Assembly (NCBI GenBank): GCA_034005145.1
Contig: JAVEVH010000001.1
Coordinates: 1,899 to 65,898, forward strand
Direction: 5' to 3'
From: Candidatus Dojkabacteria bacterium
Lineage (GTDB): Bacteria > Patescibacteriota > Dojkabacteria > SC72
Length of the DNA: 64,000 nt
Part shown: piece by piece, positions 4,700-59,796 of the stretch
Position numbering within the stretch: position 1 is the stretch's first letter
Layout: every line of letters starts with the position of its first letter
Translations under genes and position numbers: made by a program
Notes under the pieces: generated by a model
The model's input: the letters and a program-made list of their open reading frames with translations, nothing else
Told to the model about the DNA's origin: nothing
Database searches by the model: none

Positions 4700-4716
4700 A
4701 TTATTTTCATATCTAG

Positions 4717-6063
4717 ATGAAATATATCTGTAGTTCATGTGGTAGTGAGTCACTTAGATGGTCTGGTAAGTGTAGTGTTTGTAATGAGTGGGGTACTTTA
4801 GAGGAACTAAGTGAGGAAATTGTAAATACCAATGGAAAAGCAGGTAGTAGTACAAAGGCTTCCTATAGGGCTATTACAGAATATAGAAGTGGTACCGATA
4901 GTAAAAAGGTCGCTAAGAATAGATTGAGTACGGGATATAAGGAGTTTGATAGGGTATTGGGTGGTGGATTAATATCTGGAGAGGTTGTATTAATGAGTGG
5001 AGAGCCAGGTGTAGGTAAATCTACCATTCTTTTACAAGTAGCTTTAAATATATCTTCTAAACTTCGTGTTTTGTATGTATGTGGAGAGGAATCTCCATCT
5101 CAGTTAGTATCTAGGTTAGATAGGTTAGCAAAAGAAAAAGACAATGTAGAGAATATATTTGTAACTAATGATGTAGTAGTCGAAAATATTTACAATCTTG
5201 TTTCAGAAGAGGAATTTGGATTAGTAATAGTAGATTCTGTACAGAGTGTAAGCTCTTTAACCTCTAAAGGATATCCTGGAAGCATCAGTCAGGTTCGAGC
5301 TTCAGGAGCTCTTTTAACACGTCTTTCTAAAGTAACTGGTGTACCATCTATACTTGTAGGACAAATAAATAAAGGGGGAGATATTGCTGGTCCAAAGATA
5401 TTAGAGCATATTGTAGACTGTGTTTTGTACATAGAGGGGGGAGAATTTAATCAGTACAGGATATTAAGGGGTATGAAAAACAGGTTTGGTTCCACGAATG
5501 AAATAGGGGTATTTGAGATGACATCCATGGGTTTGCAAGAGGTTGGTAATCCATCTCTAATATTTTTAGATTCTAAATCAGCTGTTTCAGGTAGCGCTAT
5601 TGGTGCAATACTTCAGGGTTCTCGTGTAGTTTTTGTAGAGGTACAGGCATTGGTTGTAGAAAGGGGTGCTGAGGTAGGTCCTTTGAGAAGGGTTGCTAAT
5701 GGTATTAAAAAACCAAGATTAGATATGCTTTGTGCTGTTTTATCTAGGAGAGCAGGTGTATTTTTAGGAGATAAGGATGTGTTTGTTAATATAGTTGGTG
5801 GTGTAACTGTATCAGATCCTGCTGTAGATTTAGCTGTTTGTGCTGCTATTAAGTCAGCAGTAAAGGATACTGTGTTGGAGAAAGAATCTATATATTTTGG
5901 TGAGGTAGGTTTAACTGGTGAGATTCGTGGTACATGGGGTTTAGATTCAGTTCTGTCTGAAGCTGCAAGAGTAGGGTATAAGAGTGCATATATAGGCAAT
6001 ACTTCTGTTAAAAGGAAGAGGGATTTAAAGGTTACTGTAGTAAAGAGTATAAAGACCCTCTAG
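4717..6063 (+). CDS. radA: DNA repair protein RadA/Sms
   Basis: N-terminal C4 zinc finger CSSCGSESLRWSGKCSVCNEWG, RecA-like Walker A GEPGVGKST, C-terminal Lon-protease-like domain. Confidence 0.9.
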   Translation: MKYICSSCGSESLRWSGKCSVCNEWGTLEELSEEIVNTNGKAGSSTKASYRAITEYRSGTDSKKVAKNRLSTGYKEFDRVLGGGLISGEVVLMSGEPGVGKSTILLQVALNISSKLRVLYVCGEESPSQLVSRLDRLAKEKDNVENIFVTNDVVVENIYNLVSEEEFGLVIVDSVQSVSSLTSKGYPGSISQVRASGALLTRLSKVTGVPSILVGQINKGGDIAGPKILEHIVDCVLYIEGGEFNQYRILRGMKNRFGSTNEIGVFEMTSMGLQEVGNPSLIFLDSKSAVSGSAIGAILQGSRVVFVEVQALVVERGAEVGPLRRVANGIKKPRLDMLCAVLSRRAGVFLGDKDVFVNIVGGVTVSDPAVDLAVCAAIKSAVKDTVLEKESIYFGEVGLTGEIRGTWGLDSVLSEAARVGYKSAYIGNTSVKRKRDLKVTVVKSIKTL

Positions 6064-6205
6064 TTATTGCAAATATCCGTTCACATTTTTCGTAACACTT
6101 AGTTCTATTATATATTTCCGTAACATCGATACCGTTTATAAGCCTAAAAGCCTTGGTATGTAATAACTTATATATTTATCCTCAGTGTGAATACTTCTTA
6201 TAGGG

Positions 6206-6235
6206 TTGACATATTACATACAAAGGGATTATAAT
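6206..6235 (+). promoter_or_regulatory. Sigma70-type promoter TTGACA-17-TATAAT
   Basis: ttgaca(6206-6211), 17-nt spacer, tataat(6230-6235). Lies in a 508-nt non-coding gap. Confidence 0.5.
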
Positions 6236-6241
6236 ATGTTG

Positions 6242-6482
6242 TTCATTTAATAACTGTGTGGATATCTTAATTTTCTCCCTTTGTCTGGGGTGCCACAAAC
6301 ACATCTGGGCAAAAGGAAAAGATTAAGATATTTCAAGTCTCTCTTTAGTATGAGTTTAGGGTAAACTCAAATAAAGGAAGATTTGGGAAGCACAGTGTGC
6401 TCTCCGATTTTATATTATTAGTTTCGCTAATAGTATGATACCGGGGTCGGTTGGGGCAGTACCGATCCCATCTTTCTTTTTT
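6242..6482 (+). ncRNA. Candidate ~240-nt structured small RNA of unknown class (own promoter and terminator)
   Basis: Bounded by the promoter at 6206-6235 and an intrinsic terminator at 6443-6482. No ORF above 20 codons. Internal complementary segments: atatcttaat/attaagatat, gggaagcaca...tgtgctctcc. Confidence 0.4.
6443..6482 (+). terminator. Rho-independent terminator (ggggtcggt-loop-accgatccc + U-run)
   Basis: 9-bp stem with one G-U pair, 9-nt loop, followed by atctttcttttttcat. Confidence 0.6.
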
Positions 6483-6487
6483 CATAG

Positions 6488-6516
6488 TTGACTTCTAATA
6501 TTTGATTGAATATACT
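6488..6516 (+). promoter_or_regulatory. Promoter for rho (TTGACT-17-TATACT)
   Basis: ttgact(6488-6493), 17-nt spacer, tatact(6511-6516), about 55 nt upstream of the rho ATG. Confidence 0.45.
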
Positions 6517-6571
6517 AAGAAAGATTGAAAGGCTTATTGCCCAAAATTATTAATTTCCCTGTTATATATAT

Positions 6572-7837
6572 ATGGTTAACAAAACAAAGAGTATTAAAGA
6601 GTATGAACAGATGACTCTCGCTATGCTTCGTGCTGAAGCAAAGAAATTAGGTATGGAGGACTTTATGGAACTCCAGAAAAGAGAGCTTATGATTGAAATA
6701 TTAAAGAAATCTACCTCCGATGAGGGGTATGTTTTTGTTGAAGGTATCCTAGAGGTACAAAAAGATGGCTCACATGGTGTATTAAGAACTGATGGAGTAC
6801 TTCCTGGAGATAATGATGTATATATAGGGGGGTCTCAGATTAAGAAGTTTAGTCTTAGAACAGGAGATGTAGTATCTGGTCCTGCTAGATTACCTAAAGA
6901 GAAAGAGAAGTATCTTAGTTTACTAAGAGTAGATACTGTATATGGTAAGCCTGCTGCAGAGGCAGCAAATAGACCTGTTTTTATGAAAATGACACCTATA
7001 TTTCCTAATAGACAGATTAAATTAGAAAGTAAACCAGAGGTTCTTTCTACTAGAATGATAGATTTACTCTCTCCAATTGGTTTTGGTCAAAGAGCTATGG
7101 TAGTTTCTCCTCCTAAGGCTGGTAAAACATGGTTACTCAAAGATATTGCAGATGGTATTGCAGCTAATAATCCTAAGGCTAAATTAATAGTAGTATTGGT
7201 TGGTGAGAGACCTGAAGAGGTTACTGATATGAAAAGATTTGTAAAAGGAGAGGTATATGCTTCTAACTTTGATGAGCTTCCTGAGCATAACTGTAGAGTT
7301 GCTGAGATGGCACTTCAAAAGGCTATGTGTATGGTAGAGTGGGGAGAGGATGTCATTATCTTAATGGATAGTATTACTAGATTAGCTAGAGCATACAATA
7401 TTACTATGCCTACATCAGGTAAGACTCTCTCTGGAGGTTTTGATCCTGTAGCTTTATATCCACCTAAGAGATTCTTTGGTGCTGCTAGAAACTTCGAAGA
7501 GGGTGGTAGTTTAACAATTATCGCTACTGCTTTAGTAGAAACTGGTAGTAGAATGGATGACTTAGTATATGAGGAGTTCAAAGGTACAGGTAATATGGAG
7601 CTACATTTAGATAGATCTTTGGCTAACAAGAGAATATATCCATCTATAGATGTAACTAAATCAGGTACTAGAAATGAAGAGCTACTTTTAGGTAAAGAGG
7701 TTTTGAATCAATCATGGAGAATTAGAAGGATGATAGAGATATTAGATCAAAACGAGAATCCTACTGAAGTGCTCGTAAGTCAGCTTAGAAAGACAAAATC
7801 TAACGAGGAATTCCTCGCAACACTACATGAGGCCTAA
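6572..7837 (+). CDS. rho: Transcription termination factor Rho
   Basis: Rho N-terminal domain, OB-fold/CSD-like RNA-binding region, Walker A PPKAGKT, Q- and R-loops. 421 aa. Confidence 0.9.
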   Translation: MVNKTKSIKEYEQMTLAMLRAEAKKLGMEDFMELQKRELMIEILKKSTSDEGYVFVEGILEVQKDGSHGVLRTDGVLPGDNDVYIGGSQIKKFSLRTGDVVSGPARLPKEKEKYLSLLRVDTVYGKPAAEAANRPVFMKMTPIFPNRQIKLESKPEVLSTRMIDLLSPIGFGQRAMVVSPPKAGKTWLLKDIADGIAANNPKAKLIVVLVGERPEEVTDMKRFVKGEVYASNFDELPEHNCRVAEMALQKAMCMVEWGEDVIILMDSITRLARAYNITMPTSGKTLSGGFDPVALYPPKRFFGAARNFEEGGSLTIIATALVETGSRMDDLVYEEFKGTGNMELHLDRSLANKRIYPSIDVTKSGTRNEELLLGKEVLNQSWRIRRMIEILDQNENPTEVLVSQLRKTKSNEEFLATLHEA

Positions 7838-9243: not shown

Positions 9244-9316
9244 GGGCTCATAGTTTAGTTGGGAGAACATCGCATTCGCATTGCGAAGGTCGCCGGTTCA
9301 ACTCCGGCTGAGTCCA
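9244..9316 (+). tRNA. tRNA-Ala (anticodon CGC)
   Basis: Cloverleaf folded by hand: acceptor GGGCUCA/UGAGUCC with G3:U70 (Ala identity), anticodon loop UUCGCAU, T-loop TTCAACT. 73 nt, no encoded CCA. Confidence 0.8.
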
Positions 9317-9325
9317 TATACATGT

Positions 9326-9399
9326 GGGCCTGTAGCTCAGTTGGCTAGAGCACATCGCTGGCAGCGATGGGGTCAGGGGTTCGAACCCCCTCAGGTCCA
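9326..9399 (+). tRNA. tRNA-Ala (anticodon GGC)
   Basis: Acceptor GGGCCUG/CAGGUCC with G3:U70, anticodon loop CUGGCAG, T-arm AGGGGTTCGAACCCCCT. 74 nt. Confidence 0.8.
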
Positions 9400-34802: not shown

Positions 34803-34876
34803 GTACTTGTAGCTCAATTGGATAGAGCATTGGTTTGCGGAACCAAAGGTTGACAGTTCGATTCTGTCCAAGTACA
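34803..34876 (+). tRNA. tRNA-Arg (anticodon GCG)
   Basis: Acceptor GUACUUG/CAAGUAC, D-arm GCTCAATTGGATAGAGC, anticodon stem TTGGT/ACCAA with loop UUGCGGA (U33, G37), T-arm GACAGTTCGATTCTGTC. 74 nt. Confidence 0.7.
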
Positions 34877-34879
34877 TAC

Positions 34880-34953
<74 letters not shown>

Positions 34954-45448: not shown

Positions 45449-48307
45449 CTAAAAACCATTTCTCCTTAACCATTCTCCAGTGTAACTTTGAGTACCATTT
45501 TTTACATCATCGAGTGTACCTTGGGCTACAATCTCTCCACCCTTGTCTCCACCATCTGGTCCGAGGTCTATAATCCAATCTGAGAATTTTATAATGTCTA
45601 AGTTATGCTCAATAACCAGTACTGTGTTACCCTTGGTTACTAATTTTTTAAGTAAGTTTAATAGCTTATCAGTATCGTAGAAGTGAAGACCTGTAGTGGG
45701 TTCGTCTAATATATATATTGTATGACCTCTAGTTTGTTTAGAGAGCTCTTTAGCTAACTTAATTCTTTGAGATTCTCCTCCAGAGAGTGTTAGTGCTGAT
45801 TGACCTAGTTTAATATATCCTAAACCAACGTCTTGTAGTATGGAGAGTTTATTTTTTAATGATGGTATATCTTTAAATATATTAAGGGCCTGGTCTACAG
45901 TCATATCTAATATCTCTGCTATATTCTTACCCTTATAGTCGATACTTAATGCTTCCTCATTGTATCTTTTACCATTACATTCATCACATGTAATATACAT
46001 ATCTGGAAGAAATTGCATCTCTACTTTAATCTCTCCATCTCCCTTACACTTCTCACATCTGCCACCTTTTACATTGAAACTAAATCTTCCACTCTTATAC
46101 CCCCTTGCTCTAGCTTCCTGTGTCTGAGAAAACATATCTCTAATGTAAGTGAATATTCCTGTATATGTTGCGGGGTTAGATCTAGGTGTTCTTCCTATTG
46201 GTTTTTGGTCTATACCAATTACCTTATCAATATGTTCTAAACCAGTTATATCCTCATATTTACCCTCTATCTGTTTACCATTCATTTTTCTATTCATTAG
46301 TACAGGGTAGAGAGTATCGTTTATTAATGAAGACTTACCACTTCCTGATACACCTGTTATACATGTAAATGTATTAAGTGGTATATCGAGGTTAATATTT
46401 TTCAGATTGTTTGTAGTAATACCCTTTAGAGAGATATATTTAGGCTTTGTATTTAACTCTAGGCCCTTATTTATATCCTCTCCAATATTTAATCTCTTAG
46501 AAAGGTACTTACCAGTTAGTGAATCAGATTTTTTAATATCATCTATCTTACCTTGTGCTACAACCTCACCACCATGCTCTCCTGCCTTAGGACCTATATC
46601 TATTATCCAATCAGCTCTCTCCATCGTTTCTTGGTCATGCTCTACTATTACAACACTATTACCGGTATCTCTAAGAGACTCTATTGATGTTAGTAATTTA
46701 TCAATATCTTTAGGATGGAGACCAATGGAGGGTTCATCTAGTACATACAGTACTCCTGTTAACCCTGTTCCTATCTGTGATGCTAACCTAATTCTTTGTG
46801 ATTCACCTCCAGAGAGTGTATTTGCTTTTCTAGAGAGAGTTATATAGTTGAGTCCTACATTAACTAGAAACTGTAATCTACTACTAACTTCTTTAAGTAT
46901 TGGTTGTGCTATCTGTTTTTTGTTTCCATCTAATGAGAGTGTTTCTATATATCCTTTTAATGTATCTATTGGTAAGTTGCTCATCTCAATGATATTGTAC
47001 TTACCTATGGTTACAGCTAGTGAGTACGGTTTTAATCTATCTCCATTACAGCTATCACATACTCTTTCTGCCATATATTTCTCAATATCAACCTTCCTAT
47101 ACTCTGAATCAGTCTCTTTATACAATCTTTCTAACTCATTAGTAACTCCCTCATACTGTACATCATATATTCTCTCTTTACCGAAACGATTTGTATATTG
47201 AATTCTATATGACTCTTTAGCATTACTTCCAAAGAGTATTAGATCTAATATCTCTTTAGGATATTTGCCTAACTGAGTTTGTAAATCAAAGTTATGTTCC
47301 TTAGCTACGCTTTCTAATATTCTTCTTGTCCAGGAGTCTTTAGTAGTCCTATTACCCCAAGGAAAGATTCCTCCCTCTGATATTGTTAAGTTAGGATTAT
47401 ATATCTTAGTTATATCTATCTCATTTATAATACCCAAGCCAGAGCACTTAGGACATGCTCCTTCTGGTGCATTGAATGAGAAAGAGGCAGGTGTAATTTT
47501 AGGGTATGAGATTTGACACTTAAAACATGTATTCTTTTCAGAGAAGAAATATTCTTTTTTATCTATTAATACCTTTATCTCACCATCTGAAAGAGATGTA
47601 GCTAACTCTAAGGAGTCTATTAATCTCTTCTTAAATGACTCTTTATCATCCTCTAGCATCTTGTAAGTTAACCTATCTACTACTAAATCTATTGTATGTT
47701 TAATATTGGAATCTAGATTTAAATCCTCTATATCATCTAAATGATATGTATCTCCATCTATTATCACTCTAGAAAAACCTTTACTATGCAATTTTGAGAG
47801 TAGGGCAGTATATTCTCCTTTTCTACTTTTTACTAAGGGAGAGAGTAGTTGGATATTCTCTTTATCTTTTTTAATTAGGTTTAATATTCTCTGTGATATC
47901 TGTTGAATACTCTGAGATGATATTTCACTACCACATGTAGGACAGTGGGGTTGCCCTATATGCCCGTACAGTAATCTTAAATATCCATATATCTCTGTAA
48001 TGGTACCTACAGTGGATCTAGGGTTACTACTTGTTGTTTTTTGGTCTATTGATATTGCTGGAGAAAGACCTGTAATGGAATCTACATCAGGCTTATGCAT
48101 TAGTCCTAGAAACTGTCTAGCGTATGAAGAGAGAGACTCTACATATCTTCTCTGTCCTTCTGCATACAGTGTATCGAATGCTAGAGATGATTTACCACTT
48201 CCAGATACTCCTGTTAATACAACTAACTTATTTTTAGGTATATCTAAAGAAATATCCTTAAGATTATGCTCTTTAGCTCCCTTTATTTCTATATATTCTT
48301 TGTTCAT
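45449..48307 (-). CDS. uvrA: Excinuclease ABC subunit A
   Basis: Two ABC ATPase modules (GVSGSGKSSL x2, signature LSGGESQRI x2) and zinc-finger Cys pairs. 952 aa. Confidence 0.9.
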   Translation of the reverse strand: MNKEYIEIKGAKEHNLKDISLDIPKNKLVVLTGVSGSGKSSLAFDTLYAEGQRRYVESLSSYARQFLGLMHKPDVDSITGLSPAISIDQKTTSSNPRSTVGTITEIYGYLRLLYGHIGQPHCPTCGSEISSQSIQQISQRILNLIKKDKENIQLLSPLVKSRKGEYTALLSKLHSKGFSRVIIDGDTYHLDDIEDLNLDSNIKHTIDLVVDRLTYKMLEDDKESFKKRLIDSLELATSLSDGEIKVLIDKKEYFFSEKNTCFKCQISYPKITPASFSFNAPEGACPKCSGLGIINEIDITKIYNPNLTISEGGIFPWGNRTTKDSWTRRILESVAKEHNFDLQTQLGKYPKEILDLILFGSNAKESYRIQYTNRFGKERIYDVQYEGVTNELERLYKETDSEYRKVDIEKYMAERVCDSCNGDRLKPYSLAVTIGKYNIIEMSNLPIDTLKGYIETLSLDGNKKQIAQPILKEVSSRLQFLVNVGLNYITLSRKANTLSGGESQRIRLASQIGTGLTGVLYVLDEPSIGLHPKDIDKLLTSIESLRDTGNSVVIVEHDQETMERADWIIDIGPKAGEHGGEVVAQGKIDDIKKSDSLTGKYLSKRLNIGEDINKGLELNTKPKYISLKGITTNNLKNINLDIPLNTFTCITGVSGSGKSSLINDTLYPVLMNRKMNGKQIEGKYEDITGLEHIDKVIGIDQKPIGRTPRSNPATYTGIFTYIRDMFSQTQEARARGYKSGRFSFNVKGGRCEKCKGDGEIKVEMQFLPDMYITCDECNGKRYNEEALSIDYKGKNIAEILDMTVDQALNIFKDIPSLKNKLSILQDVGLGYIKLGQSALTLSGGESQRIKLAKELSKQTRGHTIYILDEPTTGLHFYDTDKLLNLLKKLVTKGNTVLVIEHNLDIIKFSDWIIDLGPDGGDKGGEIVAQGTLDDVKNGTQSYTGEWLRRNGF

Positions 48308-48386
48308 GACAACTTACATTATATCATGATTTTCTTAATCTATTACCTTAAATTAGAGGTATGGAGATGGTATAATAACGGGGATT

Positions 48387-48460
48387 GCACCCGTAGCTCA
48401 ATTGGATAGAGCAACGCACTCCTAACGCGTAGGTTACTGGTTCGATTCCGGTCGGGTGCA
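48387..48460 (+). tRNA. tRNA-Arg (anticodon CCU)
   Basis: Acceptor GCACCCG/CGGGUGC, D-arm identical to the other two tRNA-Arg genes, anticodon loop CUCCUAA (one A-C mismatch closing the anticodon stem), T-arm ACTGGTTCGATTCCGGT. TGGTATAAT -10 lies 10 nt upstream. Confidence 0.65.
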
Positions 48461-48491
48461 TACCGTTAATATTTCTTACATATATACATAT

Positions 48492-50102
48492 ATGAATATG
48501 ACAGTAGATGAGCTTAAACCACCAGATAGGAAGGATGGATATCCATCTCAAACACCTATATGGTTAAGAAGAGTATTAGAGATATTACCAGGTAGTTTAA
48601 TATGGTTCTTTGTTCTATCTCCACTAATCTTTGCAATTTTTGGTTGGGAAGAGGTATTCGTATTCTATATTTCATACCTTATAATATATTGGGTTTATAG
48701 GGGGATTAAGTTTGTAGTAGGTATCGCTATTGGAGTAAAAAGAATGGAAAGGGACCTTAAGACAGACTTTCTTAAGTTAATAAAAGAAACAGATCAGAAG
48801 AGATTTGATGAACTTAAATATATATATTTATGTCCTGTATACAAAGAGGGTTTAGATGTTTTAGAGCCATCCTTTGAGGCATGGAGTAAGAGTGATGTAG
48901 GAGCTAAAAAGATACACGTTATTGTTGCAATGGAAGAGAGAAGTGCTAAGGATATTCAGATTCCTAATTTTGAAGTATTAAAGAAAAAATATGGTCATCT
49001 ATTCGCTAGTATGGAGTATTTTGTACATCCTACTGGTATTGAGGGAGAGGCTGCTGGTGTTAAGGGAGCCAATATTAATTGGGCTATGAGGAAGTATGTA
49101 AAGAGGTTAGAAGAGGAGGGGGAGGATATTCATAACTATATGCTAATTACATGTGATTGTGATTTAAGACCTAATCCTAAATATCTATCGGGTATTACTT
49201 ATAAATATCTTACTGTAGAAGATCCAGATCATAGGTACTATACAAGTGCTGTATATACACTGAATAATAATATATGGAGAGTACCAATATTAATAAGGGT
49301 ACAATCTACTATGTTAACTTTAGTTACATTACATAACTGGACTACAGAAAAGTATGAGACTATACCTTTCTCAAGTAGTGTATTTAGTTCTAAAGCCACA
49401 TTTTCTTCATATGTAGTTAATCTAAAGACATTAAAAGAGGTACATTACTGGGATCCACAGTTAGGTATAGATGATACGACATTTTTCTGGAATGCAGTAG
49501 TAAGGTATAAAGGGAACTTTAGAGGTGAAGAGGTATATTTGCCTAGTAATAGTGATGCAGTAGAGAATGAAACTATGCTTAAGTCGTATAAATCATTTTA
49601 TAAGCAGCAACATAGATGGGGGTGGGGTATTATTATATTCCCAACGACATTAGCAGCATTGATATATGAGAAGAATATGTCTATTGCATGGAAATTACAT
49701 ATGGTATTTGCCATTATTAAAAATTACATACTCTTTTTTACAGTAGTGTATCTCATGACTATCGGTTTAGATTTATTGGGAGTATTTAGTAATGACTATG
49801 CTTATAGCTCTGCTGCTTACAATCTACCTACTGCTATGAGTTTCCTTTTGAGCTTACTAATTATATGTAACCTATTCCTTATCTACTTTAGAAGAAAGTT
49901 AATCCCTATACCAAAGGAGTGGCCTCTATGGAGGAATATATTAGACTTTGGAGAGGTGGCATTAATTGCGGTACAGATGCTTACATTTGGTTTTATTCCT
50001 TACCTTCAAGCACATACAGAAATGATGTTTGGTAGAGGTTTTAAAAAGAATTTCTATGCTACAGAGAAAGTAAAAATGAAGAAGAGTAGGTTATCTAAAT
50101 AG
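48492..50102 (+). CDS. Family-2 glycosyltransferase, polytopic membrane (processive synthase-like, QxxRW motif)
   Basis: DxD-like TCDCD and Q(Q)HRWGWG motif, multiple TM helices at both ends. ATG at 48492 preferred over the upstream GTG, which would overlap the tRNA. Confidence 0.6.
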   Translation: MNMTVDELKPPDRKDGYPSQTPIWLRRVLEILPGSLIWFFVLSPLIFAIFGWEEVFVFYISYLIIYWVYRGIKFVVGIAIGVKRMERDLKTDFLKLIKETDQKRFDELKYIYLCPVYKEGLDVLEPSFEAWSKSDVGAKKIHVIVAMEERSAKDIQIPNFEVLKKKYGHLFASMEYFVHPTGIEGEAAGVKGANINWAMRKYVKRLEEEGEDIHNYMLITCDCDLRPNPKYLSGITYKYLTVEDPDHRYYTSAVYTLNNNIWRVPILIRVQSTMLTLVTLHNWTTEKYETIPFSSSVFSSKATFSSYVVNLKTLKEVHYWDPQLGIDDTTFFWNAVVRYKGNFRGEEVYLPSNSDAVENETMLKSYKSFYKQQHRWGWGIIIFPTTLAALIYEKNMSIAWKLHMVFAIIKNYILFFTVVYLMTIGLDLLGVFSNDYAYSSAAYNLPTAMSFLLSLLIICNLFLIYFRRKLIPIPKEWPLWRNILDFGEVALIAVQMLTFGFIPYLQAHTEMMFGRGFKKNFYATEKVKMKKSRLSK

Positions 50103-51662
50103 GTAGGAATCTATATATATGTCATCAGAAGTATCCTTATTTTCGGAGTAGAAAGTATATACCTTATCACTAGATATTGTTATTACAAAATATTTAAGTG
50201 TATCTAACTCTTTAAGTATCTCTACTTGGTTATCTCCATCCTTATCTGCAATATACAGTACATTATCCTTCTCGTACCATATATATGAGGAGTTAGATAT
50301 CCAATTTACATTTGTACTATCAGTATCCAAACCTTTGATATTTTTTGAACCTAACTCAACAGTATGATCACCATCTTGTTTATTAAATGTAAATACGTTG
50401 TATCCCTGTGTATCTTTAAATATTAATTTATAGTTATCTGGTGAGAATTGTACAAACTGTGAAGGGTAGGGGGATATTAAATAGTATTTCTGGTTATCCA
50501 TACTATACCAGTATGCAGAGGTTTCAGTTCTTAGATATATACCTTTAGCTCCTTGGTGTATTCTAATACTTTGTAATTTGCCTACACTCTTAGTACTTTG
50601 AGGAGAGTTAGTAAATGGAGCATACTTTCCTTCCTTACTATCATCTTTATACTGATCTATATATCCTTTATCTTTTTGAAAATACAAATCATCTACTAAT
50701 ACCTTACTATTAGATCCATCCATTTGTTGTTGTATTAAGAGATATGCATATACATCCTCATTTTGATTCTCGGTATTTTCATCCACCTTATAGAAGTATC
50801 CCTGTTCATCTGTACTCCATATATAGCTTTTGTCTTCCTCTTTCTTTATTAAAAGATATCTAGTTTGTCTAGAGATATCATATGAGATTAAGTCTGTATT
50901 AGAATCAAACATAAGGTACTGATTGTTTAGAGACCAACTCATTTTGTATGAAGAGAGTGCAGAGATATTTAGTTCGTCCATACTAGCTAAATTACTACTT
51001 TGAGTAGAATCAAGGAGGTAGCTTTTTGTAGAGGTTGCGTCTGTAATCTGTAATACTGCTAATATACCATTAGGAGAGAGATCTAAACCTATTTCACTCT
51101 CTTGGGGTAAGTCTAGTGTAAGTACTATCTTAGGATTAGAGCCTAGGTCCCAGAATGTTGTATTAATATCAAACCTATACAGTTCATACCTGTATAGTAG
51201 GCCCGTAGTAAGTGGTTGCTTAGTTAAGAAATATATATAGTTTTGGGATTCATTTATCCAGCTATTAACATATGTCTTTTGTGAGAGAGAGAACATATTA
51301 GATTCCAAAATCTTCTCCTTTATCAACCAAGGATGTACTGGAGTAGATTTCTCTTCCTTAATCTCAATATTCTTTTCCCATTGTACATACCCACTTCTGT
51401 AAGCAGAGATATTGTATGTGCCTACAGGTAAACTAACACTTTTAGGAGTTCTACCTTCCTGCTTACCCTCAATATATATGTTAGCAAGAGAGGGGTCGGA
51501 TTGTACTGTGAGTACACCTGTTTTGATAAAGATTTCTCCTTGTGGGTCTAATCTCCACCCATTTGCATAGAAATATATAGCTACTGCTCCTGTATATACG
51601 AATATGGAGGCGAGTATAGAGATCAATGTAAACAATCTTTTGTTGTATCCTGTGCTTTTCAT
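50091..51662 (-). CDS. Membrane-anchored PEGA-domain protein with large beta-rich extracytoplasmic domain
   Basis: N-terminal TM, PEGA motif (VQSDPSLANIYIEGKQEGRTPKSVSLPVGTYNISAYRSGY). The rest is unassigned. Confidence 0.5.
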   Translation of the reverse strand: MKSTGYNKRLFTLISILASIFVYTGAVAIYFYANGWRLDPQGEIFIKTGVLTVQSDPSLANIYIEGKQEGRTPKSVSLPVGTYNISAYRSGYVQWEKNIEIKEEKSTPVHPWLIKEKILESNMFSLSQKTYVNSWINESQNYIYFLTKQPLTTGLLYRYELYRFDINTTFWDLGSNPKIVLTLDLPQESEIGLDLSPNGILAVLQITDATSTKSYLLDSTQSSNLASMDELNISALSSYKMSWSLNNQYLMFDSNTDLISYDISRQTRYLLIKKEEDKSYIWSTDEQGYFYKVDENTENQNEDVYAYLLIQQQMDGSNSKVLVDDLYFQKDKGYIDQYKDDSKEGKYAPFTNSPQSTKSVGKLQSIRIHQGAKGIYLRTETSAYWYSMDNQKYYLISPYPSQFVQFSPDNYKLIFKDTQGYNVFTFNKQDGDHTVELGSKNIKGLDTDSTNVNWISNSSYIWYEKDNVLYIADKDGDNQVEILKELDTLKYFVITISSDKVYTFYSENKDTSDDIYIDSYLFR

Positions 51663-51714
51663 TTCTGTCTAGTATATCATATCCCAATCACCATATAATT
51701 GGTATAATCTGGTC

Positions 51715-52731
51715 ATGTTAGGAAAGAAAATAGGTATCGATTTAGGTACTGCCAATTCAATAGTTTTTGTACAAGGAGAAGGTATTTCTTTTGTAGAACC
51801 TACTGTTGTTGCAATAGATGTAAATACATACAAAGTAATATCTGTTGGATCAGAGGCTAAGAAAATGATTGGTAAGACTCCAGACAATATAATTGCTAAA
51901 AGACCTCTTAAAAATGGTGTAATAGCGGATAGTAGAGTAACAGAGGCTTTACTCAAATATTTTTTAAATAAAGCATTAGGTAAATCTAGATTTTTAAAAC
52001 CAGATGTAGTAATTAGTGTACCTGCTGGTATAACTACGGTAGAACAAAGAGCTGTAGTAAAGGCAGCTACTAATGCTGGTGCTAGGCAAATCACTATGTT
52101 ACCAGAGCCGTTACTAGCAGCCTTAGGGGCAGGTCTCCCTATAGAAACCTCTTCAGGTAATATGATTGTTAACTTAGGTGGTGGTACTGCAGAGATAGCT
52201 GTAATGTCTTTGGATGGGATAGTGGAGTATGATTCTTTAAGGATAGCTGGTGACGCTATTAACGAAGCCATTATCAACTATATGAAAAAGAAAAAGGGTG
52301 TATTAATTGGAGAACAGACTGCAGAAAATATTAAGATTAGGATAGGGTCTGCAATAGAAACTAAAAATCCTAAGAGTATGGAAGTGAGAGGTAGAGATTT
52401 TGGAGCAGGGTTACCTAAAGCTATTACTGTAGATTCTAACGATATAGCTGCTGCGGTCAAGAGGCCTTTACTAAGTATAATTAATAGTATAAAAGGAGTA
52501 CTTGAGAGAACTCCTCCTGAGCTTTCTGCAGATATAATGGATAGGGGAATAGCTATGAGTGGTGGTACATCTAAATTAAGGAATTTAGATAAGCTTTTTG
52601 CAAAGGCAATAGGGGTACCTGCGTACGTTGCTGATGAACCTATGTATTGTGTTGTAAAGGGTACTGGTATTGCATTAGAATTAATGGCAACTGGTGAGCG
52701 TACGTTTACATTTAATAAATCAATTACATAA
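51715..52731 (+). CDS. mreB: Actin-like rod-shape protein MreB
   Basis: KIGIDLGTANS phosphate-1 motif and actin/Hsp70 fold motifs throughout. 338 aa. TGGTATAAT -10 ends 6 nt before the ATG. Confidence 0.85.
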   Translation: MLGKKIGIDLGTANSIVFVQGEGISFVEPTVVAIDVNTYKVISVGSEAKKMIGKTPDNIIAKRPLKNGVIADSRVTEALLKYFLNKALGKSRFLKPDVVISVPAGITTVEQRAVVKAATNAGARQITMLPEPLLAALGAGLPIETSSGNMIVNLGGGTAEIAVMSLDGIVEYDSLRIAGDAINEAIINYMKKKKGVLIGEQTAENIKIRIGSAIETKNPKSMEVRGRDFGAGLPKAITVDSNDIAAAVKRPLLSIINSIKGVLERTPPELSADIMDRGIAMSGGTSKLRNLDKLFAKAIGVPAYVADEPMYCVVKGTGIALELMATGERTFTFNKSIT

Positions 52732-52733
52732 AT

Positions 52734-53897
52734 ATGGGTATTTTTACTAAATCAGGAAAGTCATCTATGAAACTAAGTGAGGTTACTACCTTACTTTCTA
52801 AACTTAAGATACCTACTAGTTTAGTATTTACACCAATAAATCTTACTCAAGAGAAAGAGAAATTCTTAAACTCTGATACATATGAGCCTCAGTTTGAGTA
52901 CAAGATTGTTAAAAATAGGAATAGTGAGATATTAAAAGAGCTTTCATCAGTAAGAGAGATTACTGATGTAGATCCAAGAATCTCCTCCTTCTACCTCCAA
53001 TTAATAGAGTCTAAAAAAGATACAAACGATTTAATGCATGCTGTTGGTAATAATGAGTTAGTAACAGAGATATCCTTAAAGAAATATGGTAAACCATCTG
53101 CATTACTTTTTAGAAATGCTTCTAGAGTACTAAGGGGTGTAGTAGATGGATACAATCTTACTAAATATCCTAAGTTAGAGAAGGGGGATATTTTAGGATA
53201 TGAAGAGATAGTAGAGGTATTCAATACTGTCTTTGAGGAGCTTAATTTAGATGGATGGAGTGTAGCTAAGTCACAAAATATTGCTAAAAATGGTGTTAAG
53301 GTGGGTATTAAAAGAAAACAGATATTAGTAGACGCAGGTATAGAGAGGAGTAAATTCAAATTAAAGAAAACATTAGTACATGAGGTAGGTACACATGTAC
53401 TTAGGTCTGTTAATGGAGTTAAGAGTGGGTTCGAGGCCCTTAGTAAGGCTAACCTTCCAGAGTATTTAGATATTGAAGAGGGTTTAGCTACTTGGAATGA
53501 ATCTAATATGGATCTTTTAACATTGGGATGGTTAAAAGAGAAAGCTGCTTTAACATGGGCTATATATATTGGAGAGAAGCTTACCTTTAGGCAGCTGTAT
53601 AATAGTGTGTTAGGGGTATTGCCTCCTAAATCAGCATTTAGTGTTACATATAGGGTTAAGAGAGGACTAGGGGATACTAGTTATCCAGGTATATACTGTA
53701 AAGATATAGTGTACTTCAGGGGTTTTAGAAAGGTAAAAAAACAGTTAGAGAAAGACAAATCTATATATGAGAAACTATATGCTGGTAAAATAGATTTTAA
53801 GCAGTGTGAATGGGTAGATGAGGGATTAATTCCTAAAGCAGGATTAGTTCCTTCTAAAGAATTATGGAAGGGTATATTTAAAAAGGCTGGTATCTAA
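52734..53897 (+). CDS. DUF1704 / QEGLA-motif family putative zinc (tyrosine-type) carboxypeptidase
   Basis: HExxH (LVHEVGTHV) followed about 30 aa later by IEEGLA (QEGLA-like). Starts 2 nt after the mreB stop. Confidence 0.55.
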   Translation: MGIFTKSGKSSMKLSEVTTLLSKLKIPTSLVFTPINLTQEKEKFLNSDTYEPQFEYKIVKNRNSEILKELSSVREITDVDPRISSFYLQLIESKKDTNDLMHAVGNNELVTEISLKKYGKPSALLFRNASRVLRGVVDGYNLTKYPKLEKGDILGYEEIVEVFNTVFEELNLDGWSVAKSQNIAKNGVKVGIKRKQILVDAGIERSKFKLKKTLVHEVGTHVLRSVNGVKSGFEALSKANLPEYLDIEEGLATWNESNMDLLTLGWLKEKAALTWAIYIGEKLTFRQLYNSVLGVLPPKSAFSVTYRVKRGLGDTSYPGIYCKDIVYFRGFRKVKKQLEKDKSIYEKLYAGKIDFKQCEWVDEGLIPKAGLVPSKELWKGIFKKAGI

Positions 53898-54847
53898 TTA
53901 TCCTTAAATGCAGTAATAATTTCTTGAGCTATATTAATAGGATTTTCTGTTTTATTCTCGTATGCCTTAAATCCAGGATGTAAACTTATTTCCTGTAGTA
54001 ATGGTTTGTCTTTCATCATCATAATATCTACTGCTAAAAAGTCTGCCTCAAGGATTCGTGAAACATTTTGGGCCAAGGCTTTTAATTTTCCCTCAGGATT
54101 ATTGTAAGCATGGTATTCCCCCTTGCTCACTGTCATGAAACTATCCGTTGCTTCTCGTCTCCATCCTGCTATTACTTTGCCTAACTTAATAAATATACGT
54201 ATATCCTGGGCACTATCCGAGAACTCCTGTATAAACATCCTAGAGTGATCTAAATCTTTTAAATACTCCTGCCTATATCCATCTTCATTATCAATTTTAA
54301 ATACATTCTTTTTTACTTTCTCTTCACCATTTATATTTTCTAATCTATTAGCTCCAGAGTAATCTTTAATTATTAATGGGAATGCATTTAATATATCTCT
54401 GTGTGCAGAGTAATTACCATCTGTTCTAAAGTATGAGTCAAAGTAGGGGATATTATGTTTGGAGCAAAATAGAGCTAGCTCTATTTTATTGTAATATGGT
54501 AATTTTTTAATAGCTTGAGAATTTTGTACCAATATTTTGTTATCTGGATTGTCTGAGTTATGTTGATCAATGTAATCTACTATATATTTTTTAAATTGGT
54601 ACTGTATTGGATTATGTAAATCATGTCCTCTAAGTAGTATATGACTATATTTTCTAATATCCATACCTTTCGCTTTTATCACTGTTTCACCATTTATGAA
54701 CTCAAATTCGAGCTCATCAAAGTATGCTAAGGAGTGGGGTATATCTTTTTTGTCCAGTTCCTCAGTTAGTCGTAAATTGGTAGTGGCAATATTGTTCTCA
54801 TTTTCTGTTTTTACCCTCTGTTTTTTATCGATTATTAAGTAATTCAT
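53894..54847 (-). CDS. RimK-like ATP-grasp amino-acid ligase
   Basis: C-terminal half aligns to RimK: DIRIFIKLGKVIAGWRRE...VDIMMMKDKPLLQEISLHPGF vs DIRCLVVGDEVVAAIERR...[21 protein letters not shown]. Confidence 0.6.
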   Translation of the reverse strand: MNYLIIDKKQRVKTENENNIATTNLRLTEELDKKDIPHSLAYFDELEFEFINGETVIKAKGMDIRKYSHILLRGHDLHNPIQYQFKKYIVDYIDQHNSDNPDNKILVQNSQAIKKLPYYNKIELALFCSKHNIPYFDSYFRTDGNYSAHRDILNAFPLIIKDYSGANRLENINGEEKVKKNVFKIDNEDGYRQEYLKDLDHSRMFIQEFSDSAQDIRIFIKLGKVIAGWRREATDSFMTVSKGEYHAYNNPEGKLKALAQNVSRILEADFLAVDIMMMKDKPLLQEISLHPGFKAYENKTENPINIAQEIITAFKDN

Positions 54848-54851
54848 ATGT

Positions 54852-56540
54852 TTATATTTTCCTTATATTATCTATTAATTTCATCCTTTTATACCTCTTT
54901 AATATTTTCATATACTCTTTGTTTGTACTCATATCTTTTGTAATGAATACGGTATTAATATGATCAAAGCCCAGTCCGTACTCCTTTACATCATCCCAAT
55001 CTCTATGATGTATTACTATTACATCAAGTAGAGCATTACATTTTATAGATTCAAAGGATCTCCATCTTTGGGATTGTTCATTCATTAACATACCGTTAAT
55101 GTAATATCTTTCCTGTACGATTTCTCCTACAGTATCTTCCTTTTTAATCATCCATTTCCTTCTTAGTAGAGTAGGTAGGTCATCTTTACTTTGTCCAATT
55201 ACTACGAATTTCTTACATACATTTTCTTTAAGTAAAGCCTTTATATATGTTTCTGCTACATAGCTTCTCTGTTTACCAAGTATTGGATAGAAGTTAAGGT
55301 ATGATTCTGGCATTGTATTTACTTCTAGGATAGCGCCATTCTCTTTGGTTAATGGTTTAGAGAGATCTAGACACATTACATCTACACCTAAGGTAAAGGC
55401 GTGTAATGAGTTAGCTAGGCTCTCTACAATGGTTTTAATTTCCTTACTAACGGAATCTGTAAAGTCTTCTGTTATACCTCCCTGACTCATACTAGCGATC
55501 TTTCTTACCTGTATCTTTTCTTCCTTGCTAGGCACAGAGCTAAGTGTAAGCCCTTGTTCTTTAATGTAATCTTTAAGGGGTTCATCTATGTCTATGGGCT
55601 TTAATATATGGGCTGGGTTTGTAGTATCTCTTCTTGGATCTTTATTTTCTTTCTCTATTAATTCTTTAATAGTTAATTTACCATCACCGATTATAAAGGC
55701 AGGTATTCTTTTAGTAGCTATTTCTAACTTACCGTTAATAACTAGAAGCCTGTAATCTTCTCCCTGGACCTGTTCCTGTATCATTACTTTTGTTTGCCAT
55801 GTAGCTTTACCCTCTCCTGCCTCTTTAGCAAATTTAAATGCTTTTTTAGCCTCCTCTAATGTATTAATACCTACTACAACACCATGTCCACCTGTTAAAC
55901 CAGTAGGTTTAATTACGACTGGTTTCTCATACTCTGAAAATACTTCTTCTAAATGATTTAGGCTATCTATAACTTCCCACTTAGGAAGAGGAAGATTTAA
56001 TCTCTTAATCATTGTATTCGTAGACCATTTATCTCTTTGAAGATTTTGGGATATATATGCATCCTTAGAGGAAGCTATTGAACCTGTAATCTGAGAGCCC
56101 TTACCACATCCTAGAAGGTAGTATCTATTAAATATCCTCCTATATCCCTGTTTAAGATCTTTAATCATTAAATCGTCTAATACAGCTGGTGTAGTTTCAA
56201 TATTTTGATTATGTGCAGACTCTAGTACTGGGATTGTAGACATTGATTTAATTCTTCTTCCTATTACTTCTTCTATTACATACTGTTGTGCTTTTTCTAA
56301 TGTAATTTTACTTTTAGAAAGATTTACAAAGCTTTCTGCAGACTCTCTCCAAAGAAATGGTAATTTAGACCTTATAGTGAGGAGAGTGGGGGATATTGAG
56401 TATTCTTTAATAAAAAGAGGGTGGAAAGTAACAATTTTGTCTAGTATGGTAGTAATATCTCCAATATTATCTCCTTCTAAGGATATCTTTACTGTTGTAA
56501 ACTGTGATTCTAGATTTAGACCCTGTACTGTTTGTACCAT
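54852..56540 (-). CDS. Cyanophycin-synthetase-N-terminal-like ATP-grasp ligase (no Mur-ligase domain), with unique N- and C-terminal extensions
   Basis: YRLLVINGKLEIATKRIPAFIIGDGKLTIKELIEKENKDPRR ... SQGGI ... GVDVMCLDLSKPL...ILEVNTMP closely parallels the CphA ATP-grasp core. Confidence 0.65.
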   Translation of the reverse strand: MVQTVQGLNLESQFTTVKISLEGDNIGDITTILDKIVTFHPLFIKEYSISPTLLTIRSKLPFLWRESAESFVNLSKSKITLEKAQQYVIEEVIGRRIKSMSTIPVLESAHNQNIETTPAVLDDLMIKDLKQGYRRIFNRYYLLGCGKGSQITGSIASSKDAYISQNLQRDKWSTNTMIKRLNLPLPKWEVIDSLNHLEEVFSEYEKPVVIKPTGLTGGHGVVVGINTLEEAKKAFKFAKEAGEGKATWQTKVMIQEQVQGEDYRLLVINGKLEIATKRIPAFIIGDGKLTIKELIEKENKDPRRDTTNPAHILKPIDIDEPLKDYIKEQGLTLSSVPSKEEKIQVRKIASMSQGGITEDFTDSVSKEIKTIVESLANSLHAFTLGVDVMCLDLSKPLTKENGAILEVNTMPESYLNFYPILGKQRSYVAETYIKALLKENVCKKFVVIGQSKDDLPTLLRRKWMIKKEDTVGEIVQERYYINGMLMNEQSQRWRSFESIKCNALLDVIVIHHRDWDDVKEYGLGFDHINTVFITKDMSTNKEYMKILKRYKRMKLIDNIRKI

Positions 56541-56546
56541 GTTTTT

Positions 56547-57527: not shown

Positions 57528-57546
57528 ATATTGATATATTTAAATA

Positions 57547-59022: not shown

Positions 59023-59689
59023 CGTCTCTACCAGTAAATCTAAATCTAAAGTAATCCTTTATCCTCAAACCTTTAAACATACCAATTAAGATATTTAAGA
59101 TTGCAAGTAGAGGTATTAACCATAGATTGTTTAGGAAGTAGTCAGAGATTATCTCTCTAGTTATTACAAACCATCCAAATACTGCTACTAAGATTGTAGT
59201 AAGTAGAGTCATTACAGATGATTGTAGGGACTTTTTGACATACTGCTTTGTAAAAAAGTCAGAGAGAGCCGCTATTGATATGAAAGCGAGTGGGGGGATA
59301 TTAGACATATTCTCTAAACCTAATCCTAAGGTATCTATTAATACAAAGAAAAGAACTAATACCATTGAGAGGACAATATAGTTGGTAGCAATACGAGTAA
59401 TGTAATGTATTCTTACCTTTTTAAGTACAGAGTAGGAGAGTAAAGAGGTTAATATTACAATCAATGTTACTGCTAAACCGTATTTTAATCCTGTATATGA
59501 GTATGCAATTGAAAGAAGTACTGGAGCATATATACCGTATGTCTTACCTCCTACAAGATATCTAGAGATACTTACAATGGTTGCTACAATACACATAGCT
59601 ATGAGTATTTCTAATACCATTTGTGATATACCATGATCAATTATCCACTCTGTTAACTTGGATGTTTCAAACATATATATATTGATCAA
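59012..59689 (-). CDS. Polytopic membrane protein (6-7 TM), first gene of the ATP-grasp operon
   Basis: Hydrophobic helices throughout. Stop overlaps the next gene's start by 11 nt. The start is more likely the ATG at 59674 than the TTG at 59689. Confidence 0.5.
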   Translation of the reverse strand: MINIYMFETSKLTEWIIDHGISQMVLEILIAMCIVATIVSISRYLVGGKTYGIYAPVLLSIAYSYTGLKYGLAVTLIVILTSLLSYSVLKKVRIHYITRIATNYIVLSMVLVLFFVLIDTLGLGLENMSNIPPLAFISIAALSDFFTKQYVKKSLQSSVMTLLTTILVAVFGWFVITREIISDYFLNNLWLIPLLAILNILIGMFKGLRIKDYFRFRFTGRDDDK

Positions 59690-59771: not shown

Positions 59772-59796
59772 TTAAGATACTTTTTAAAGATTTAGA

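Follow-up and report, generated by a model that had tools for sequence, protein, structure and literature searches.

What lies in the unusually long gap between radA and rho in a genome of the Dojkabacteria? These bacteria (candidate division WS6, a class of the Patescibacteria) belong to the Candidate Phyla Radiation (CPR), are uncultivated and have tiny genomes, and to our knowledge almost no regulatory RNAs have been described from them or from other CPR bacteria. We analyzed a stretch of 64,000 nucleotides (nt) from a Candidatus Dojkabacteria contig (JAVEVH010000001.1 of assembly GCA_034005145.1), hereafter the window, in which 508 nt (6064–6571) separate radA from rho, the gene of transcription termination factor Rho. 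An earlier annotation made from the letters of the window (the sequence-only reading) had taken this gap to contain a complete and independent unit for a functional RNA of a class that it could not name. Comparison with relatives bears this out, through conserved signals, compensatory base changes, the lack of a conserved open reading frame (ORF) and the lack of an Rfam match. It is firmly established that an independent non-coding transcription unit, both conserved and structured, lies in the gap and founds a new RNA family.

Results

The transcription unit is conserved across Dojkabacteria

Using the Rho protein as query and one genome per species, we retrieved 80 Dojkabacteria loci, in most of which radA, a gap of about 480–620 nt and rho are syntenic. 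A search with the window transcript (nhmmer, E values from 1e-11 to 1e-72) detected the element in each of the 76 non-identical radA–rho gaps, always in the same orientation, and in 76 out of 76 the first promoter (P1), the body of the RNA, a 3′ hairpin (T) and a second promoter (P2) are found at matching positions. The sequence-only reading had made its case depend on the gap being kept in relatives, and it is kept. Also conserved, when the alignment is read in window coordinates, are the first ~10 nt of the transcript, a large hairpin (H1) and the segment GGGAAGCA...CTCTTCGAT.

P1 (6206–6235, + strand) is composed of TTGACA (6206–6211) and TATAAT (6230–6235) and matches the consensus at 12/12 positions. 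The boxes and their place had been recognized in the earlier annotation, but the spacer is 18 nt long and not 17. In a profile of the 76 gaps, the columns of P1 are about 90–100% conserved, and an ATAGGG extension 5′ of the −35 box is conserved too. TTGACA followed by TATAAT or TATACT at a distance of 17–18 nt was seen in 114 distinct loci. P2 (6488–6516, + strand), which had likewise been pointed out as a promoter for rho, reads TTGACT-17-TATACT (10/12 match) and is kept in the 76 gaps; in the divergent rho-linked loci described below, TTGACA-17-TATACT stands 3′ of hairpin T in nearly all. With P2 present 3′ of T in nearly every rho-linked locus, rho is served by a promoter of its own and also has a conserved 5′ untranslated region (UTR). 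Single promoter or terminator matches occur at chance frequency in this AT-rich window (5 promoter-like sites found, 5.7 expected), so that the significance of these signals rests on their conservation and on the comparative evidence.

Based on the position of P1, transcription is expected to start at about 6241 ± 2 and to yield an RNA of ~235 nt (roughly 6241–6478, + strand).

The structure of the RNA is under selection

The segment 6242–6482 folds with −84.4 kcal/mol, compared with −53.9 ± 4.9 kcal/mol for dinucleotide shuffles (z = −6.2; none of 200 shuffles was equal), in agreement with the internally complementary stretches that the earlier annotation had seen in a transcript of ~240 nt. 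The opposite strand folds worse (z = −4.8). The RNA contains 51 G and 40 C.

Covariation, which the sequence-only reading had proposed as a check on relatives' gaps, was evaluated in an alignment of 74 full-length main-clade RNAs (A1), assembled without reference to the boxA-like motif described below. Compensatory changes are carried by 25 of the 46 modelled pairs, with 287 cells against 85 ± 12 in column shuffles (0/500 as high). The covariation score is 0.283, and at most 0.101 when pairing partners are slid by 1–3 columns. Two of the hairpins, H3 and H4, covary at every modelled pair, and the outer stem of H1 has double changes at 13 of 24 pairs; hairpin T covaries at none because it is invariant.

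No ORF is conserved in strand, frame or sequence among the 74 relatives, and the lengths of the element span all residues modulo 3. The statement that the transcript has no ORF above 20 codons did not hold, as mechanical ORFs of 22–46 codons exist on both strands; none of them is conserved in the 74 relatives. Coding for a small protein was rejected, since the longest ORFs differ between species in strand, frame and sequence. Thus, based on the covariation and the lack of a conserved ORF, we conclude that the element is an RNA with a structure under selection.

The RNA is a chain of separate hairpins

The consensus structure of the 74 RNAs (RNAalifold, alignment A1) is a chain of 4–5 separate hairpins. 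Its elements are H1 (24 base pairs, bp), a variable H2, H3, H4, T and, tentatively, a long-range helix that joins a purine tract to the 3′ tail.

In the window, H1 (6261–6332, + strand) comprises about 30 bp, including the 12-bp core that defines the family, in which CCCTTTGTCTGG (6277–6288) pairs with CTGGGCAAAAGG (6305–6316). The core follows the pattern CCC-nnnn-YYUGG paired with CUGR-nnnn-x-GG and includes a conserved C·N mismatch and a tandem U·G/G·U wobble; the U·G, G·U and G-C step is invariant. In total, 161 H1-type hairpins were extracted from 137 RNAs, at 1–3 copies per RNA, with two H1-type cores in 24 RNAs. A second, ungapped alignment (A2) contains 104 distinct H1-type hairpins, the cores of which were selected for at least 10/12 complementary positions. 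Compensatory changes occur at 11 of its 17 pairs, with 329 two-sided cells versus 113.7 ± 7.9 in shuffles, and the covariation score is 0.517 compared with 0.170 for shuffled and at most 0.229 for slid controls. The six pairs that flank the core were not subject to the selection and covary strongly as well. H1-type hairpins are found 212 times within 320 nt 5′ of a T hairpin and twice elsewhere in 1.72 Mb, which is the shuffle level. The window itself has one T and one H1 core. In one relative (L057, 3506–3915) the element is partially duplicated in tandem, with two H1-type cores, a span of 410 nt and a second nhmmer match.

H2 (6334–6384, + strand) is variable. It is a second H1-type hairpin in deep-branching relatives, is degenerate in the window and is missing in some relatives. 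Its 3′ strand is the purine tract ATAAAGGAAGAT (6371–6382), which can instead pair with the 3′ tail through 5 pairs, 4 of them with double changes; the modelled duplexes of tract and tail reach −9.67 kcal/mol for cognate and −8.80 kcal/mol for non-cognate combinations. We regard this long-range helix as tentative. H3 (6385–6408, + strand) is formed by GGGAAGCAC...GTGCTCTCC and is followed by a conserved CCGAT; its 3′ strand is CTCTCCGAT, and an H3 pair is AU in 37 sequences and GC in 32. H4 (6409–6438, + strand) varies in sequence and length, but the helix is kept, and 5/5 modelled pairs show compensatory changes.

The 3′ hairpin T with its tail (6443–6482, + strand) has the stem GGGGTCGGT (6443–6451)/ACCGATCCC (6461–6469), the loop TGGGGCAGT and the tail ATCTTTCTTTTTT (6470–6482). 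A G+C-rich stem of 9 bp, a loop of 9 nt and a U-run immediately 3′ are the features of an intrinsic terminator, and the strong terminator called by the earlier annotation is therefore present. In the clade of the window, T is predicted to act as the intrinsic terminator of the RNA. Across 74 species, in which RadA is only 54–86% identical to the window protein, the 27 nt of T (9 pairs plus loop) show no difference. U-rich tails are kept in the main clade, and the U-run after T is missing in some divergent or phage copies. Since there are copies of T without a U-run, its invariance must reflect a function beyond termination, and most likely T also binds something, judging from its sequence constancy. 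By eye, T and its tail had also been considered as 16S helix 45 plus the anti-Shine–Dalgarno sequence; this was rejected as the real Dojkabacteria 16S 3′ end has another stem and another loop.

A boxA-like motif opens the transcript

Right after the −10 box, the transcripts open with G(T/A/C)TC(T/A)TT(T/A/C)A, for example GTTCTTTAAA, GATCTTTCAAA or GCTCTTTCAAAG. The copy in the window, GTTCATTTAA (6241–6250, + strand), occupies the extreme 5′ end of the transcript. For comparison, the published boxA consensus is GYTCTTTAANA (PMC5725501). Within the first 30 nt, G[CTA]TC[TA]TT is present in 59 of the 74 main-clade RNAs (1.5 expected) and the strict form GYTCTTT in 30 of the 74 (0.5 expected). 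The motif starts 5–12 nt past the −10 box in 114 distinct loci, and is thus promoter-proximal in an untranslated transcript. In the divergent clades it is found in 14 out of 38 RNAs; others have one-mismatch variants and some have none.

The same motif is also located directly 3′ of the 16S end, the usual place of spacer boxA elements, in five Dojkabacteria rRNA operons, which are those within the fetched loci (GTTCTTTAAACAA in L119, GATCTTTAAATAA in L144, GTTCTTTAAATGA in L084, GTTCTTTATATTT in L118 and GCTCTTTTATATA in L157). Together, the sequence of the 5′ motif, its position and this rRNA comparison support its membership in the boxA class. The operons lie at 741–1240 of L119, 1096–1560 of L144 and 903–1290 of L157, and on the reverse strand of L084 and L118. 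Their order is the 16S 3′ end, boxA, two tRNA-like genes (by eye tRNA-Ile and tRNA-Ala) and 23S-like sequence, and in some loci a second boxA-like sequence, AATCTTTAAT, precedes the start of the 23S gene.

BoxA ahead of CRISPR arrays reportedly shields their transcripts from Rho. The occurrence of boxA ahead of these arrays, another class of non-coding transcripts, is reported in a paper on their termination and antitermination (PMC7665894). More generally, boxA brings NusB/S10 (NusB/E) to nascent RNA and can block or promote the action of Rho (PMC12360218).

Hairpin T is predicted to compete with an alternative pairing

The 5′ arm of T, AUCGGGGUCGG, can pair with a conserved CUUCGAU/CGACUUCGAU segment that lies 5′ of H4. 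In divergent clades the two segments give a helix of 11–17 bp that excludes T, and T is missing from the full-length minimum-energy fold in 15 out of 18 divergent RNAs. When T is either forced or forbidden, the two states are near-isoenergetic in the divergent clades (median −4.5 kcal/mol, range −15.2 to +5.6), whereas all 89 main-clade RNAs favour T (median −9.8 kcal/mol). For the window the preference for T amounts to −4.9 kcal/mol, and the rival helix has 5–6 bp (CUCCG with CGGGG); when the window transcript is truncated, 6 nt of the 5′ arm of T pair ~39 nt upstream. Main-clade RNAs use the segment 5′ of H4 as the 3′ strand of H3, so that the pairings form a classical scheme of 1:2 (H3), 2:3 (antiterminator) and 3:4 (terminator).

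The family is found in Dojkabacteria and on phage-like contigs

A metagenome scan with the hairpin pattern GGTCGGNNGGGGCAGNNCCGATC retrieved at least 120 stretches. Among the matches listed, most come from close Dojkabacteria, about 45 are much more divergent (Rho 49–68% and RadA 35–43% identical to the proteins of the window), and about 15 lie in GC-rich DNA without the flanking GG/CC and are regarded as chance. In the divergent loci both the hairpin and the general layout are retained, and the element usually lies between radA and rho. Divergent loci with Rho identities of 62–68% were first taken as other phyla, which would have implied a range across the CPR; the closest named proteins are all from Candidatus Dojkabacteria/WS6. 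Because of this, the claim is limited to that class and does not extend to other CPR groups. Within the range sampled, the family seems restricted to Candidatus Dojkabacteria (WS6) and a subset of their phages.

The gene after the element is on the same strand as the RNA in every case, and in most lineages it is rho. In one divergent group of loci (L090, L100, L117 and L188) the RNA is located elsewhere, near the transfer-messenger RNA (tmRNA) gene, and the downstream genes differ among members. In three related loci of one lineage (L087, 2818–3195; L132, 5353–5766; L162, 2287–2589; oriented) a small ORF stands in the place of rho and is followed by convergent genes. By eye, this ORF is ribbon-helix-helix-like (MxRKQIKLxV...).

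Three phage-like contigs carry copies, with neighbouring genes identified by PHROGs. In L126 (1900–3905) the boxA-like motif, H1 and T are ~350 nt 5′ of the small and large terminase genes. In L204 (reverse-complemented, 4700–5460) the full element lies between a leftward RecT operon and a rightward replication-initiation gene. In L203 (10730–11040) only the 3′ part is present (UUCGAU, H4 and T), 35 nt from the start of an operon that includes a RecE-like exonuclease. The copies are therefore at the heads of operons, which is the promoter-proximal position of a nut/put-type antitermination RNA. L203 also has a sequence similar to the H1 5′ strand, UUGCCCAGAGGA; it overlaps the ribosome-binding region of the ORF that follows.

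Deposited phage and plasmid records gave no blastn match to the element. A viral scan with the apical 15-mer of H1, GTCTGGTTCGCGTAC, returned more than 120 matches and was discarded, as nearly all represent one repeat in higher-GC contigs, without the hairpin context. This repeat (L205–L324, IMG/VR contigs) is coincidental and unrelated to the RNA, and possibly belongs to a mobile-element gene; Rfam gave nothing on ten of the viral contigs that bear it.

The RNA matches no known class

With Rfam 15 at gathering thresholds, the only matches in the whole window are five tRNAs, with nothing on the element; the outcome that Rfam would identify it as a known leader of rho did not occur. At E ≤ 10, the gap yields only chance matches resembling microRNAs and snoRNAs. 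In 16 divergent loci, gathering thresholds recovered rRNA, tRNA and tmRNA elsewhere and none on the element. For a divergent member analyzed in E-value mode, the best match has E = 0.011 and 25 bits against a threshold of 100, and was treated as chance. ARAGORN found no tRNA or tmRNA gene in 5900–6700. We found no description of such an RNA in the literature.

The sequence-only reading had set aside tRNA-like RNA, tmRNA and RNase P RNA, and had named 6S RNA, a large signal recognition particle (SRP) RNA and a novel small RNA (sRNA) as candidates. Neither ARAGORN nor Rfam finds a tmRNA or a tRNA here, and L090 and L117 have a distinct tmRNA gene close to the element. RNase P RNA is excluded by the lack of an Rfam match and by length (~235 nt, compared with ~330–400 nt for the class). 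For 6S RNA there is no model match at E ≤ 10, no closing stem between the 5′ and 3′ ends and no central bubble, and the RNA forms separate hairpins instead of a rod. For SRP RNA there is no model match at E ≤ 10, and none of the terminal hairpins has the helix-8 domain-IV motif. The only GGAAGCA is the 5′ strand of H3, where it is fully paired, the wrong topology for SRP RNA; divergent members do not have it. Both of the named known classes thus fall away, leaving the novel sRNA as the only one of the three candidates that stands. A leader of rho with an Escherichia coli-type Rho utilization (rut) site is ruled out by the separate promoter and terminator, the high degree of structure (z = −6.2) and the excess of G over C.

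Motifs upstream of P1

A degenerate TCCACA-type motif, ATCCGTTCACA (6075–6085), and two CGTAACA direct repeats (6091–6097 and 6119–6125) lie upstream of P1 (6075–6125, + strand). The direct repeats had been noted in the earlier annotation as a possible regulator site, an interpretation that gains support from their conservation. Across 117 distinct 200-nt upstream regions there are 117 copies of CGTAACA (in 78 of 117 loci), a 169-fold enrichment over the remainder of the loci, and TCCACA is enriched 11-fold. A further site, TGTGAATA (6186–6193, + strand; consensus of relatives TGTGGATAA in the 76-gap profile), is an inverted copy of TCCACA just 5′ of the −35 box. Based on this pattern, the CGTAACA and TCCACA sites are probable operators for P1. 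In three relatives, an extra small ORF of 111–164 amino acids is inserted between radA and the upstream motifs (L040, 2910–3404; L044, 2954–3415; L051, 3119–3454). Despite the inserted ORF, the upstream motifs, P1 and the RNA remain beside rho.

Although the TCCACA/TGTGGA motifs resemble the core of the DnaA box, exact DnaA-box 9-mers are present in just 6 of the 117 loci. GC skew is positive on either side of the gap, so that the gap is not an origin; a replication origin or a DnaA-box cluster is rejected based on both observations.

The rho leader and the surroundings of the gap

The 5′ UTR of rho (6523–6571, + strand) is ~49 nt long and has two conserved C-rich motifs, TTGCCCA (6537–6543) and TTTCCC (6554–6559). 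Their counterparts in divergent clades are CCUCAA and AUUUCC. These C-rich islands are possibly rut sites for the autoregulation of rho. Of 110 main-clade loci, 52 have TGCCC 30–45 nt 5′ of the rho start (background frequency, 0.35 per kb); among divergent UTRs, 1 of 26 carries TGCCC. The loop of T, GGGCA(G), is complementary to TGCCC. In the window, GGGCAG can form 6 bp with UUGCCC, and GGGAAG is complementary to UUUCCC.

The gap is flanked by radA (4717–6063, identified by Pfam) and rho (6572–7837, + strand; Pfam Rho_N, Rho_RNA_bind and ATP-synt_ab), with clpC on the upstream side and a LysM/M23 peptidase gene on the downstream side. In the window, clpC (2228) and the M23 peptidase gene (7864) have no Shine–Dalgarno sequence and a TATAAT box 5–14 nt 5′ of the ATG, which suggests that their mRNAs are leaderless or near-leaderless. 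Shine–Dalgarno sequences are missing from radA and rho as well, yet the 16S 3′ end of relatives retains CCUCCUUUC. Upstream of clpC are ORFs at 227–838 and 927–2168, by eye an endonuclease III-like protein and a 413-residue protein with S1 repeats (ribosomal protein S1).

The five tRNA genes, which are the sole Rfam matches in the window, are at 9244–9399, 34803–34953 and 48387–48460, with two in tandem pairs. GC and AT skew are positive over 1–46 kb and negative at 46–48 kb and from ~54 kb on (within 46000–64000). The negative skew could reflect either a block of minus-strand genes or a replication-related switch of skew.

Discussion

An attenuator linked to Nus factors is the likeliest mechanism

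The boxA-like motif, the repeated hairpin type that H1 represents, the invariance of T and its competing pairing, and the phage copies suggest that the RNA is tied to the control of transcription elongation and is not a generic sRNA. The mechanism that we consider likeliest, although at somewhat less than an even chance, is a Nus-factor-linked attenuator RNA that gates read-through into rho. We favour it because it unites the boxA-like motif, the 1:2, 2:3 and 3:4 pairings, the co-orientation with the downstream gene, the persistent association with rho and the phage copies that head operons.

In this scheme, RNA polymerase would start at P1, probably controlled via the CGTAACA and TCCACA sites. 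The boxA-like sequence would be transcribed first and would load NusB and S10 onto the elongation complex. H1 would be transcribed next, as a sequence-specific, wobble-rich helix that resembles a protein-binding site. The decision would then depend on whether region 2 (CTCTCCGAT) forms H3 with upstream sequence or pairs downstream with the 5′ arm of T. Where T forms, polymerase would stop at the U-run and a stable, structured sRNA would be released, which would be the default in the clade of the window; where T does not form, polymerase would cross P2 into rho. As a result, how much rho is transcribed and how much RNA is released would both depend on the state of the elongation and antitermination machinery. 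The steps that we infer are the binding of Nus factors, a protein that recognizes H1 and T, and any effect on rho.

Several observations weigh against this attenuator. Based on the sequence, the position of P2 right after T would make read-through dispensable for the expression of rho. In the clade of the window the modelled switch may be vestigial, with an antiterminator of 5–6 bp and T favoured by −4.9 kcal/mol. The hairpin on the phage-like contig L204 has no U-run. Certain divergent members do not have the boxA-like motif, the copy in the window, GTTCATTTAAT (6241–6251), departs from GYTCTTTAANA at 2 positions, and boxA-like 10-mers are not rare in the window (6 found, 2.5 expected). Finally, the variable downstream genes in L090, L100, L117 and L188 fit an autonomous RNA gene better than a leader.

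Alternative explanations

Some of these observations are accommodated by a purely trans-acting, stable housekeeping sRNA or ribonucleoprotein RNA, for which the released ~235-nt RNA is the functional product. H1, in 1–3 copies, and T would bind and titrate a conserved protein, the boxA-like motif would merely protect or chaperone the transcript, and the adjacency to rho would be inherited synteny. The consensus promoter, the strong terminator and the separate promoter of rho are in line with this, as is the locking of T in the terminator fold in 89 of 89 main-clade RNAs. The invariance of T and of the H1 core, wobbles included, is typical of protein-binding sites, and the varying copy number of H1 resembles that of sponge RNAs. 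Downstream neighbours vary in the group of L090, L100, L117 and L188, and the RNA is effectively single-copy: the 64-kb window has one T, and outside the element H1 does not exceed shuffle level in 1.72 Mb. However, a trans-acting RNA leaves the near-isoenergetic terminator and antiterminator alternatives of the divergent clades unexplained, the phage copies head operons (in one case a fragment in the 5′ UTR, with a start codon only 35 nt away), and we know of no candidate partner protein. We consider this explanation the main rival, less likely than the attenuator.

An RNA that regulates rho mRNA by base pairing, in trans or in cis, is unlikely. The precedent is the SraL sRNA, which binds the Salmonella rho leader over a putative rut site (Silva 2019, cited in PMC12360218). 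By analogy, base pairs between the C-rich motifs in the rho 5′ UTR and the exposed T loop (GGGCAG), with GGGAA(G) in H3 as a possible second partner, would modulate the translation of rho or its Rho-dependent attenuation. The 6-bp complementarity between the T loop and the UTR in the window, the fixed position of TGCCC in 52 of 110 main-clade loci and the conservation of the C-rich UTR motifs are consistent with such pairing. The complementarity is only 5–6 nt, however, and no more than about half of main-clade UTRs, and 1 of 26 divergent UTRs, have TGCCC. The C-rich islands are equally well explained as rut sites, and the family also occurs away from rho and in phages.

A highly diverged universal RNA (6S, SRP or similar) that the Rfam models miss is very improbable. 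It would be expected to be, like this RNA, single-copy, strongly promoted, ~200 nt long and lineage-wide. Neither the window nor the divergent member gives a 6S, SRP, RNase P or tmRNA match at E ≤ 10, none appears at gathering thresholds in the 16 divergent loci, and ARAGORN finds nothing; moreover, the string of hairpins is unlike 6S or SRP RNA, and the tmRNA is separate in L090 and L117. Least credible of all is an element acting only as DNA (an operator, a DnaA-box cluster or an origin-like region) with palindromes that mimic RNA hairpins: conserved TCCACA/TGTGGA motifs with a likeness to the DnaA-box core, CGTAACA around P1 and the place of T just 5′ of the P2 −35 box speak for it, but the compensatory changes include G-U wobbles, pairing on the + strand only, the + strand folds better (z = −6.2 versus −4.8), the T loop has an invariant sequence, which is atypical of a palindromic operator, the GC skew is positive on both sides and exact DnaA boxes are in just 6 of 117 loci.

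Significance

If the attenuator is viewed together with its phage copies, the boxA-like motif, H1 and T could, as a speculative extension, constitute an elongation-control module of an uncultivated CPR lineage that couples Nus antitermination to the dosage of Rho and that phages of this lineage have copied to lead operons of theirs. If true, the module implies a highly conserved host factor that reads H1 and T. The RNA is lineage-wide and structured, with rRNA-like constancy in parts, a boxA-like 5′ end, a choice between terminator and antiterminator, and placement before rho, and it offers an entry point to how minimal cells balance termination against antitermination. The copies on phage-like contigs suggest a portable control device and a possible marker for phages of Dojkabacteria. 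Even if the proposed mechanism is wrong, the family is defined enough for RNA family databases (74 full-length RNAs, 104 hairpins, a covarying structure and diagnostic motifs).

Comparison with known systems

The RNA shares with the boxA of rRNA operons (rrn boxA, with NusB/S10, NusA and NusG) the promoter-proximal G(Y)TCTTTAA form, an untranslated and strongly promoted transcript, and the presence of the motif in the 16S–23S spacer of the same lineage. It differs in that it is not rRNA, is only ~235 nt long, has its own terminator, and carries the motif at the extreme 5′ end with 2 mismatches in the window copy.

The nut sites of phage lambda consist of boxA and boxB, and put of HK022 and EAR of Bacillus are cis-acting antiterminator RNAs. 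As in these systems, a boxA-like sequence followed by a conserved hairpin lies just downstream of a strong promoter, and the phage copies start early or packaging operons. H1, however, greatly exceeds boxB in size and has no sequence relationship to it, Rfam shows no similarity, and the host copy ends in a terminator instead of preceding one at a distance. We know of no N-like protein for this RNA.

In E. coli and other bacteria, rho leaders autoregulate by Rho-dependent attenuation. The resemblance to these leaders and to SraL lies in a regulatory RNA directly 5′ of rho on the same strand, C-rich motifs in the UTR and a short complementarity between RNA and UTR. In contrast to them, the RNA described here is transcribed from a promoter of its own up to an intrinsic terminator, a second promoter serves rho, the RNA is highly structured and not an unstructured rut region, and it also occurs away from rho.

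With classical attenuators and riboswitch platforms the RNA has in common the mutually exclusive pairings 1:2, 2:3 and 3:4 (T and the U-run), which are near-isoenergetic in divergent clades. There is no leader peptide, tRNA-binding element or recognizable ligand pocket here, the regulated gene would be rho or a phage operon and not a metabolic gene, and the clade of the window is nearly locked in the terminator state. Compared with 6S and SRP RNA, the size range, single copy, strong promoter and high degree of structure are alike, whereas no models match and the architecture is incompatible. Judged by its sequence, the RNA appears to represent a new family within a known general class, the regulatory or attenuator RNAs led by a boxA.

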